Positions 59,764 to 60,912 of a DNA stretch of 64,000 nt are shown one piece after another. Within the stretch, counting starts at the first letter, position 1. Each line of letters starts with the position of its first letter. This stretch comes from Escherichia coli. GTDB taxonomy: Bacteria; Pseudomonadota; Gammaproteobacteria; Enterobacterales; Enterobacteriaceae. A model generated the notes under the pieces. The model made no database searches and had not been told where the DNA came from. It worked only from the letters and a program-made list of their open reading frames with translations. The position numbers and the translations under genes were made by a program. The stretch is from the NCBI RefSeq assembly GCF_011045215.1, contig NZ_CP049201.1; one strand, 5' to 3'.

Positions 59764-60912
59764 ATGGGATGGAGCAGAACAAAATCATTATCAACAGAAT
59801 TACCTCATAAACCATCAATGATGTTGTGGTTTATGACAGGGGCATTTATGGCTGTTGTTGGTGCTCTGTTGTTTATTATCCGGGCATCAGGATATGTGAA
59901 AGCATTAAATAATTTCAGTATCTGGTGGCTTGCATTGACTCCTCCGGGGAGCTGGTTTTTCCTGTTTTGCCTGCGACACTGGCAGTGGAGCAACCAGATG
60001 GATGAACATTTGTTTCTTAAAAAAGAGGGGGAGTATGCTCAGAAACAGTGGGAATCCTGGGCCGAAAGGTATCTTGTTATTACTGCCAGTTGTGTTTATT
60101 TGCCTGATAAAATAACGGTAGCTACTCTTTGTGATGAATTGCCTCTGCAGTATGGCCTTGTAAAGAAAATAGATTATCTTTCTGACAGTGGGCATAAGGT
60201 TGAAGCCTCTTTACGTGTCTTGCTTAGGGAGATAACGGATAAATTTTGTCAGTTACCTGCCGCTCTCCCTGTAAATGTGACGCTGATAACCGATCAGCCT
60301 GATTCTGAAATCAGATCTGCTTTTGTTTCTGCATGGGAAGCGTTATTTCCCCAACGCGTCGTTCCTGACAATATTGAGGTTACTCCCGACTTTTCCATGG
60401 GGTGGGGTGATGAGCGTCTGAAACAACCAGTGCTGACTGTGGATTTGATACTGGTAATACAGCTTAATGGGGGAAATGCATACTCTGACGGACTGGCTGC
60501 ACTTTTGTTGACCAGCGATGATGTTGCGCAAAAATATAATCTGCCGCATTCAGCCCGTCTGCTACGCCCGATGTCGCTGGATATCAACAAGTTTAATGAT
60601 GAATTCACACTTTTCCTTGAAACCCAGACAGCTGCCTGTCGTACCGCTCGTGTACTGGGGGACTGTTATCACTGGGAAAAGATTGCTGCACCGCTGATGA
60701 CTATTGGAAACCAGTATGGTGCCGGATGGGAACCGTCCGGACGTATGTTACTGGAAAAATGGTGCGGTATCCCGGGACCTGCTGCTCCGTGGCTGCTTAC
60801 TGCTCTGGCAGCCGATCTGGTCTGTCTTGGTAATGATTCTCTCCTGACTTTATTCTCATCCGGAGAAGAACATTTTATCAGTACTGTTACATCAGGAAAC
60901 CAGAATGAATAA
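59764..60912 (+). CDS. Membrane protein of unknown function, T6SS-cluster-embedded
   Basis: 382 aa; two N-terminal TM helices; immediately precedes and overlaps tssM start. Confidence 0.55.
   Translation: MGWSRTKSLSTELPHKPSMMLWFMTGAFMAVVGALLFIIRASGYVKALNNFSIWWLALTPPGSWFFLFCLRHWQWSNQMDEHLFLKKEGEYAQKQWESWAERYLVITASCVYLPDKITVATLCDELPLQYGLVKKIDYLSDSGHKVEASLRVLLREITDKFCQLPAALPVNVTLITDQPDSEIRSAFVSAWEALFPQRVVPDNIEVTPDFSMGWGDERLKQPVLTVDLILVIQLNGGNAYSDGLAALLLTSDDVAQKYNLPHSARLLRPMSLDINKFNDEFTLFLETQTAACRTARVLGDCYHWEKIAAPLMTIGNQYGAGWEPSGRMLLEKWCGIPGPAAPWLLTALAADLVCLGNDSLLTLFSSGEEHFISTVTSGNQNE

Follow-up and report, generated by a model that had tools for sequence, protein, structure and literature searches.

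Between the gene for the PAAR spike-tip protein and tssM, the cluster of a type VI secretion system (T6SS) in a 64,000-nucleotide stretch of Escherichia coli DNA (contig NZ_CP049201.1; hereafter the window) contains a "hypothetical" open reading frame (ORF) of 382 residues, which we call X. Our sequence comparisons identify X as a conserved accessory protein of one T6SS lineage, which comprises the Sci-1 or T6SS-1 system, its counterparts in other Enterobacterales, and those of Pseudomonas and Burkholderiaceae. X is predicted to consist of an N-terminal transmembrane (TM) hairpin, a stalk helix and a soluble domain with a thiolase-like fold. We propose, with a probability of about 40%, that X is an inner-membrane-tethered, cytoplasm-facing adaptor that would dock the PAAR-capped spike or the baseplate to the TssJLM membrane complex. 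Annotated genomes have shown this gene for a long time; new here are its fold, the breadth and strictness of its linkage to PAAR and tssM, and a specific candidate role.

The X gene and its linkage to PAAR and tssM

X occupies positions 59764-60912 of the plus strand and starts with an ATG codon. ORF calling and the neighbouring genes confirm its place between PAAR and tssM, as given in a preliminary description of the window. The upstream gene (59494-59760, plus strand) encodes an 88-residue PAAR tip protein, a homolog of EC042_4537, and matches the PAAR_motif family (PF05488) with an E-value of 2.2e-24; its counterparts in E. coli 042 and STEC313 are annotated as PAAR domain proteins. Its TAA stop codon lies at 59758-59760, and the ATG of X begins 3 nucleotides later. 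Within the last PAAR codons, 6 nucleotides ahead of this ATG, we found a Shine-Dalgarno-like AGGA (59754-59757, plus strand) that may serve as the ribosome-binding site of X. Several GenBank E. coli records carry a 364-residue form that begins at the internal Met19 (position 59818). We took the 382-residue start as the real one because M1 and W3 are conserved superfamily-wide, being kept in 97% and 94% of 163 relatives, respectively.

At its other end, X shares an 8-nucleotide overlap, ATGAATAA, with the start of tssM (60905-60912, plus strand). Within this overlap, the tssM ATG takes up 60905-60907 and the X stop codon TAA 60910-60912; a second AGGA precedes the tssM ATG at 60894-60897. The tssM gene itself (60905-64000, plus strand) runs past the end of the window and was assigned from the ImcF-related annotation in E. 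coli 042 and STEC313 and from tblastn synteny in 79 loci. Of 77 related loci, 75 have the stop codon of X overlapping a start codon of tssM, as ATGA in Pseudomonas and by 8, 14 or 17 nucleotides or more in Enterobacterales. Since it is kept in so many loci, the overlap is not due to chance. Co-translation of X with tssM had been drawn from it earlier; the overlap is real, and translational coupling, which its conservation fits, is what we infer from it.

A scan of 58700-61100 for promoters and terminators yielded counts no higher than in shuffled sequence. Promoter-like hexamers are present at 59404-59432; the frequency of such sites does not exceed that in the shuffles, and they could possibly belong to an internal promoter for PAAR-X-tssM. 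The AT-rich gap of ~600 bp that separates the upstream lipoprotein gene from PAAR (58891-59493) holds no ORF on the plus strand and is unannotated in STEC313 as well.

X is 98% identical to P0001, an E. coli cluster of 531 members, and a search of 5.8 billion proteins returned 251 relatives. Among the matches listed, the relatives are ~380-390 residues long, are named either "type VI secretion protein" or "hypothetical", and have no precomputed Pfam domain save for one VgrG-fusion chimera. In this chimera (P0062, a Logan contig product of 615 residues), VgrG up to approximately residue 265 is fused directly to X, which begins at about its residue 30. It has the appearance of a deletion or an assembly artefact, with loss of effector, immunity gene, PAAR and the N-terminus of X. 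Searching 1.84 billion cluster representatives with a family profile (A1) yielded 241 proteins at E ≤ 1e-3, of which 51 reached E ≤ 1e-30. The distant full-length relatives, with Caballeronia arvi, Paraburkholderia adhaesiva and Sodalis among the named sources, are 15-20% identical to the window protein; the MxW motif at the N-terminus, the hairpin and the helix that bears WxxW are all retained in them. Ten of them lacked any Pfam domain (E ≤ 0.1-1). No bridge to the DUF2875 family was found via these distant relatives, and a search with a broad profile (A2) likewise retrieved only unannotated members of the X family. Over 163 sequences, the positions conserved to at least 85% are M1, W3, W22, W96, W99, P114, L228, Q233, S241, R268, P269, M270, Q288, G335, G338, W343 and L361; there is no Cys or His among them.

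To describe the gene neighborhood, we sampled one genome per species, giving 79 loci that belong to numerous genera of Enterobacterales and to Pseudomonas (31-34% identity). As judged by tblastn with the E. coli 042 proteins, the order PAAR–X–TssM–TssA(–TssF) is found nearly everywhere, and the content between VgrG and PAAR is variable. PAAR lies upstream of X in 76 of the 79 loci. Its end precedes the X start by 2-5 nucleotides in 78 of 80 pairs, and by exactly 3 nucleotides in 64 pairs. The gene order reads TssBC–VgrG–Tle3–Tli3–PAAR–X–TssM–TssA–TssF–TssG in Paraburkholderia and ClpV–VgrG–Tle1-like–DUF2931–PAAR–X–TssM–TssA in Sodalis-like contigs. Two distant relatives are paired with PAAR in the absence of tssM. 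In Caballeronia arvi (L082), an orphan spike island consists of VgrG, a 123-residue gene, a 338-residue gene, PAAR and X (472 residues), followed by unrelated genes on the opposite strand; in a metagenome contig (L089), PAAR–X (482 residues) is followed by a convergent gene. The effector ahead of PAAR–X also differs between loci, being Lipase_3 in the window and Tle1, Tle3 or a Tle1-like protein with DUF2931 elsewhere. Taken together, the most constant partner of X is PAAR; tssM is its usual partner, and which effector is present is irrelevant.

In Yersinia aleksiciae (L029, 7271-8307) and Enterobacter sp. BIGb0383 (L074, 7164-7808), X is followed by a gene other than tssM. It encodes a protein of 191-214 residues with the common motif LTSGE..LAKSVF. 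After it, the Yersinia locus continues with a putative lipoprotein of small size and another vgrG. The Enterobacter locus keeps a remnant of the TssM N-terminus (MNTSGSLYGYFGRTG). In both cases the cluster appears rearranged and seems to have gained an effector-like insertion.

The median identity to the protein of enteroaggregative E. coli (EAEC) is 38% for X, 58% for TssM, 60% for TssA and 73% for PAAR. X evolves faster than its neighbors, and its divergence correlates with that of TssM, TssA and PAAR (r = 0.71-0.85). By this measure, X behaves as a vertically inherited accessory protein and not as a shuffled effector or immunity gene.

The preliminary description had offered an accessory membrane-complex component as well as a PAAR-associated cargo or adaptor. 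The accessory or adaptor part gains from the Tla3 fold described below, the fixed place between PAAR and tssM, and the divergence in step with core genes. As cargo, X would be borne by PAAR and fired into prey, where its hairpin would enter the target membrane like the transmembrane domains (TMDs) of Tse6-type PAAR effectors. In favor of cargo, PAAR is followed by a protein that has TM helices and then a globular domain at its C-terminus, an order reminiscent of PAAR-TMD-toxin effectors, and PAAR–X closes some orphan VgrG islands, which is the usual effector site. However, no immunity gene follows X, whose stop codon is instead overlapped by tssM, and no Eag/DUF1795 chaperone gene was annotated or called in the loci of 042, STEC313, L082 and L086. 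The C-terminal half of X is its most conserved part and not polymorphic as in a toxin, and X is inherited with core genes. By its fold, X is a scaffold without catalytic activity, and no toxin-like family was matched; its hairpin predicts residence in the inner membrane of the producer. We thus consider a cargo function extremely improbable.

Fold, membrane hairpin and topology of X

We modelled X with AlphaFold2 (AF2), using the A1 alignment of 50 family members as input. The model reached a mean predicted local distance difference test (pLDDT) of 88.1 and a predicted template-modelling score (pTM) of 0.80. Residues 103-377 (60070-60894, plus strand) form an alpha/beta domain with a pLDDT of about 90, in agreement with the large soluble domain that had been expected. 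Ahead of this globular domain, the model contains helices at residues 19-42, at 46-50 (short) and at 53-100 (long). A Foldseek search of the full PDB returned Tla3 (8yz3), a DUF2875 protein, as the top match with an E-value of 9e-8, followed by structures of the same superfamily; the model shows a Tla3-type fold as well as the fold of the thiolase superfamily. Judged from the model, the domain is thiolase/ketosynthase-like and non-catalytic, and Tla3 is its nearest solved relative only by a narrow margin.

Sequence-level searches gave no such link. X matched no Pfam-A or NCBIfam model at E ≤ 1, with the core Tss and the Tag/accessory models (TagF, TagJ, TagL, TagA/VasL) included; X is accordingly not one of the core Tss proteins, as had been supposed, and at the sequence level it does not belong to any Tag family of established role. 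Searching the PDB with phmmer for X and with hmmsearch for profiles A1 and A2 yielded only weak matches of TM helices, to bacteriorhodopsin, and both profiles failed to retrieve 8yz3 from the PDB sequences at E ≤ 10.

Among the invariant and near-invariant columns of the 50 close relatives there is no Cys, and within the soluble domain no His either; the 163 broad relatives likewise share neither residue at any invariant position. Because of this lack, X is not a condensing enzyme. Single active-site positions may be placed tentatively in X from the predicted secondary structure. It would still be conceivable that X is an active membrane enzyme of the thiolase superfamily with a non-canonical site, e.g. 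an acyl-transferase acting on lipid or on PAAR/VgrG. The polar residues Q233, S241, R268 and Q288 are conserved superfamily-wide, and D177 is found in 72% of the sequences. Furthermore, a remnant of a FabH-type first strand (Y-L-P, with P114 conserved to 94%) aligns with FabH residues 2-20. This hhalign comparison of A1 with E. coli FabH covered the first strand only (YLVITASCVYLPDKIT against YTKIIGTGSYLPEQV) and was non-significant (probability 0.1%, E-value 0.46). Against an enzyme stand the missing Cys, His or Asn triad, the absence of any ketoacyl-synt, ACP_syn_III, Thiolase or Chal_sti_synt Pfam match even at E ≤ 1, and the absence of acyl-carrier or CoA-related genes from the annotated clusters of 042 and STEC313. 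Moreover, the nearest structure, Tla3, has been described as a binding protein and not as an enzyme (PMC6560169). An enzymatic role therefore has hardly any claim on our belief.

The known thiolase-fold proteins differ from X in several respects. Ketosynthase and thiolase enzymes (ketosynthases of type I/II polyketide synthases, FabH/FabF, chalcone synthases and thiolases) are 7-13% identical to X, which lacks their catalytic Cys-His-His/Asn residues and any match to their Pfam families, is membrane-anchored and resides in a secretion operon. Tla3 of Pseudomonas aeruginosa (PA0259; a tandem DUF2875 protein of the H2-T6SS) is found, like X, in T6SS spike loci near vgrG/PAAR. It has been described as a cytoplasmic, non-secreted and non-enzymatic adaptor that binds the effector Tle3 and the C-terminus of VgrG2b of the spike (PMC6560169). 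The likeness of X to Tla3 is confined to the fold, with no detectable sequence relation and no DUF2875 Pfam match, and X alone has the N-terminal TM hairpin and the stalk helix. Tla3, which is dispensable for the function of the machine, is also effector-specific, whereas X is tied to PAAR and tssM whatever the effector and not to a tle3 (DUF3274) effector and its vgrG. Two papers of 2019 assign PA0259 opposite roles, as the cytoplasmic adaptor Tla3 (PMC6560169) or as the periplasmic immunity protein Tli3 (PMC7376260); the PDB entry of 2025, 8yz3, carries the adaptor name. This dispute bears on how much the fold match can say about the function of X.

A further parallel is provided by thiolase-like genes conserved in DUF2169/PIPY spike-tip clusters, which in Proteus mirabilis are required for effector delivery (PMC11883445). 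These IPR040771 genes (DUF2169/DUF4150 PIPY, synteny type A: the P. mirabilis pef and the P. aeruginosa vgrG1b clusters) stand beside spike-tip genes, as X does. Compared by description, they go with PIPY/DUF2169 and X goes with a canonical PAAR protein, and X has no family match. Among known systems, X comes closest to T6SS adaptors of the Tla3 type, and we would class it with the thiolase-fold accessory proteins of the T6SS, as a variant that is anchored in the membrane and linked to PAAR.

The membrane part precedes this domain on the plus strand. It begins with an N-terminal tail (residues 1-19, 59764-59820) that carries the conserved M1, W3 and P14 in the 163-sequence set and is predicted to be cytoplasmic from its Lys and Arg (K+R) content. 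TM helix 1 (residues 20-42, 59821-59889) has a Kyte-Doolittle (KD) hydropathy of 2.3, coincides with the AF2 helix 19-42 and contains W22 (88% conserved). TM helix 2 (residues 53-72, 59920-59979; FSIWWLALTPPGSWFFLFCL) is rich in Trp and Phe, has a Pro-Pro-Gly kink and forms the first part of the AF2 helix 53-100; it would lead the chain back to the cytoplasmic side. Its conserved positions are W54, P60 and R71. TM2 is marginal in the window protein, with a KD of 1.25 against a close-family mean of 1.57, and clearly hydrophobic in distant relatives. Two N-terminal TM helices had been proposed for X; the hairpin itself is well supported by the hydropathy of TM1 and the AF2 helices, and TM2 is predicted to insert into the membrane. 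The remainder of the long helix forms the stalk (residues 73-102, 59980-60069), whose WxxW motif is found superfamily-wide (W96, 96%; W99, 99%). The stalk is the best-conserved region in the close family, with a mean column identity of 0.73. Hairpin and stalk are conserved to the same degree as the best-conserved stretch of the globular domain and have W, P, G and R residues at fixed places, which suggests that the membrane part is more than a plain anchor.

The distribution of charges was used to orient the hairpin. The mean K+R number is 2.3 in the N-terminal tail, 0.8 in the loop of ~9 residues and 2.0 in the 16 residues after TM2, and the flanks exceed the loop in 99% of the sequences, although the contrast is modest per residue. 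The cysteines of the globular domain are unconserved (those of the window protein occur in 1-33% of sequences), and their number is odd in 78 and even in 85 sequences. Unconserved cysteines without a bias towards even numbers argue against an exported, DsbA-exposed domain. A subgroup of ~460-480 residues has two extra C-terminal TM helices, which leave the parity of membrane crossings unchanged. These features point to an N-in/C-in topology, in which the thiolase-like domain would be cytoplasmic.

An alternative that requires the opposite placement is an immunity or self-protection protein with a periplasmic globular domain, like the exported DUF2875 protein Tli3. DUF2875 homologs with lipoprotein signals or N-terminal TM helices are reported by Wood et al. 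to provide immunity against Tle3 (PMC7376260), and the marginal TM2 of the window protein makes a single-span N-in/C-out arrangement conceivable. However, TM2 is strongly hydrophobic in most relatives, and both the charges and the cysteines favor a cytoplasmic domain. The genomic context speaks against this alternative as well: the same X family follows effectors of the Lipase_3, Tle1, Tle3 and Tle1-like types, all of them already provided with a lipoprotein or immunity gene next to them, and X stays constant while these cassettes change, so that the co-variation with an adjacent toxin typical of immunity proteins is absent. The fixed neighbor of X is an 88-residue PAAR protein without a toxin domain (PMC10715212). 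An immunity function is consequently very improbable.

The T6SS-1 cluster and the left part of the window

The region 59400-61100 is 99.7% identical to several chromosomes of Shiga toxin-producing E. coli and 98.4% identical at the DNA level to E. coli 042 and 55989. The window carries the E. coli T6SS-1 cluster (EAEC Sci-1 type). In E. coli 042, the left part of this cluster consists of tssB, tssC, tssK, tssL, an OmpA-family gene, hcp, tssH and two small genes. The middle part contains vgrG, tle1, two tli1 genes, PAAR, a "hypothetical protein" (EC042_RS24240 / WP_001403985.1) that is 98% identical to X, and tssM. After tssM follow tssA, a hypothetical gene, tssF, tssG, tssJ and tssE. The EAEC PAAR protein is EC042_4537 (PMC10715212), and the locus tag EC042_4539 leads to a paper on a TssM nanobody; X thus corresponds to EC042_4538 by locus-tag numbering. 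A full-text literature search returned no paper on EC042_4538, mentions of sciR only in lists of virulence genes, and no publication that joins T6SS, PAAR, tssM and ketosynthase.

Upstream of PAAR, the window holds a variable spike/effector module (53716-58890, plus strand), formed by VgrG (53716-56238), a lipase and a lipoprotein. The 636-residue class-3 lipase effector (56235-58145, plus strand; Lipase_3, PF01764, E-value 7.7e-21) has a start that overlaps the VgrG stop. It is followed by a putative lipoprotein immunity gene of 258 residues (58114-58890, plus strand). In E. coli 042, lipase and lipoprotein are replaced by Tle1 and two copies of Tli1. In another locus (L003), similar 258-residue lipoprotein genes stand in tandem immediately upstream of X. 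Between tssH and vgrG, we found a 226-residue ORF (52733-53413) without a Pfam family; STEC313 has a "hypothetical protein" in this gap and E. coli 042 the two small genes, one of which is called a putative T6SS immunity lipoprotein.

Positions 1-43000 look like a mosaic genomic island in which no tRNA gene is present. The transposases of this left part are two of IS66 (8242-9780, minus strand, and 35863-37365) and one of the Tn5 type (32507-33922). It further includes a chaperone-usher fimbrial operon, with the usher at 13053-15629, and genes for a GT4 glycosyltransferase (23023-24126), for a DUF4056 protein (26650-27795) and for a PAPS-reductase/DUF3440 protein (30201-31451). In STEC313, the T6SS is preceded by a cad operon and a microcin H47 island, unlike the ORF content of the left part of the window, which therefore belongs to another strain background. 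A few kb downstream of its T6SS, at a place past the window end, STEC313 as the closest complete genome carries a type II Zorya anti-phage system (zorA2, zorB2, zorE; L002, 37674-41141), and E. coli 042 has other genes there.

A candidate role for X between spike and membrane complex

In the EAEC Sci-1 system, PAAR caps VgrG without further factors, and toxin loading is independent of PAAR (PMC10715212). PAAR is nevertheless required for the foci of the baseplate protein TssK and for sheath assembly, and is dispensable for TssM foci (PMC10715212). Beauvois et al. named no receptor or partner for PAAR and did not mention the X gene (PMC10715212). X is the obvious candidate for a partner on the membrane side because of its position between PAAR and tssM, its membrane tether, its adaptor-type domain and the conservation of its hairpin and stalk. 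In our proposal, X would be produced together with PAAR and TssM and would reside with its hairpin in the inner membrane of the producer. Both of its ends would be cytoplasmic, with the pseudo-enzyme domain below the membrane. X would engage the PAAR-capped VgrG spike or the surrounding baseplate, bring the spike to the cytoplasmic face of TssJLM, and would itself stay unfired.

Several observations weigh against this adaptor role. We modelled PAAR and X as a fusion with a (GGGGS)6 linker in AF2, a weak test with 22 paired rows, and obtained a pTM of 0.65, near the value for X alone in a 500-residue chain. The five fusion models scatter, with pLDDT values from 57 to 82, they show no confident docking, and the N-terminal tail of X gained no confidence. 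In the window protein, TM2 is only marginally hydrophobic; a TM2 that failed to cross the membrane would place the domain in the periplasm. In three of the 79 loci, X and tssM are retained without an adjacent PAAR gene. EAEC PAAR binds the VgrG tip without X in heterologous co-production (PMC10715212), and PAAR thus does not depend on X as a chaperone. Tla3, too, has a contested role, with Wood et al. calling the same protein a periplasmic immunity protein (PMC7376260).

The three loci without an adjacent PAAR gene favor a role that is independent of PAAR, in which X would be an accessory subunit or assembly factor of the membrane complex. Its hairpin would pack on the TM helices of TssM and/or TssL, its domain would support the cytoplasmic domain of TssM, and the adjacency to PAAR would reflect operon history only. 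The overlap of the X stop with the tssM start in 75 of 77 loci suits this role, as do the fixed W, P, G and R residues in hairpin and stalk, which are as expected for helix-helix contacts. X also shares its gross layout, a hairpin followed by a cytoplasmic domain of ~300 residues, with the N-terminal part of TssM, besides the operon and the overlapping reading frames. However, the two proteins lack sequence similarity, the best BLASTP E-value being 0.32. The cytoplasmic domain of TssM is NTPase-like, unlike the thiolase-like domain of X, whose fold is of the spike-side adaptor type. PAAR–X moreover occurs without tssM next to it in the VgrG islands L082 and L089 and in L029. According to Durand et al. 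(2015), the 1.7-MDa TssJLM complex reportedly assembles from, and can be purified with, three genes alone; the lack of a need for X counts against a membrane-complex subunit and also against the adaptor. Likewise, no need for X has been reported in the formation of TssM foci, but the EAEC strains of that study did contain X (PMC10715212). A function within the membrane complex, the main alternative to the adaptor, is in our view doubtful but deserves serious weight. Separately, an origin of X as a duplicated TssM N-terminus was rejected, given that the BLASTP match to the window TssM covered just 52 residues at this E-value of 0.32.

A more far-reaching version of the adaptor proposal would make X the missing membrane-side receptor of the spike tip, an overlooked structural subunit of Sci-1 that sits among the TM helices of TssM and TssL at the base of the membrane complex. 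Its dead-enzyme domain would bind the zinc-stabilised PAAR cone and license docking of the baseplate only when the spike is capped. We regard such a receptor as unlikely. If true, it would explain why EAEC needs PAAR for TssK foci but not for TssM foci, and would add one more component to a machine whose parts list seemed complete.

The EAEC Sci-1 system serves as the structural reference for the T6SS, and X stands in its core operon without a name or family and without an experiment in the literature searched. Should its deletion give no phenotype, X would be just another dispensable accessory gene. Besides Tla3/DUF2875 and the thiolase-like genes in PIPY/DUF2169 clusters, X would represent a third independent case in which a dead thiolase fold has been recruited to the biology of the T6SS spike. 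The combination of an adaptor fold, a membrane tether and a locked position between PAAR and tssM across Gamma- and Betaproteobacteria thus suggests a concrete role for X, which would fall at a step that is so far unexplained, the recognition of the PAAR-capped spike or baseplate by the membrane complex.

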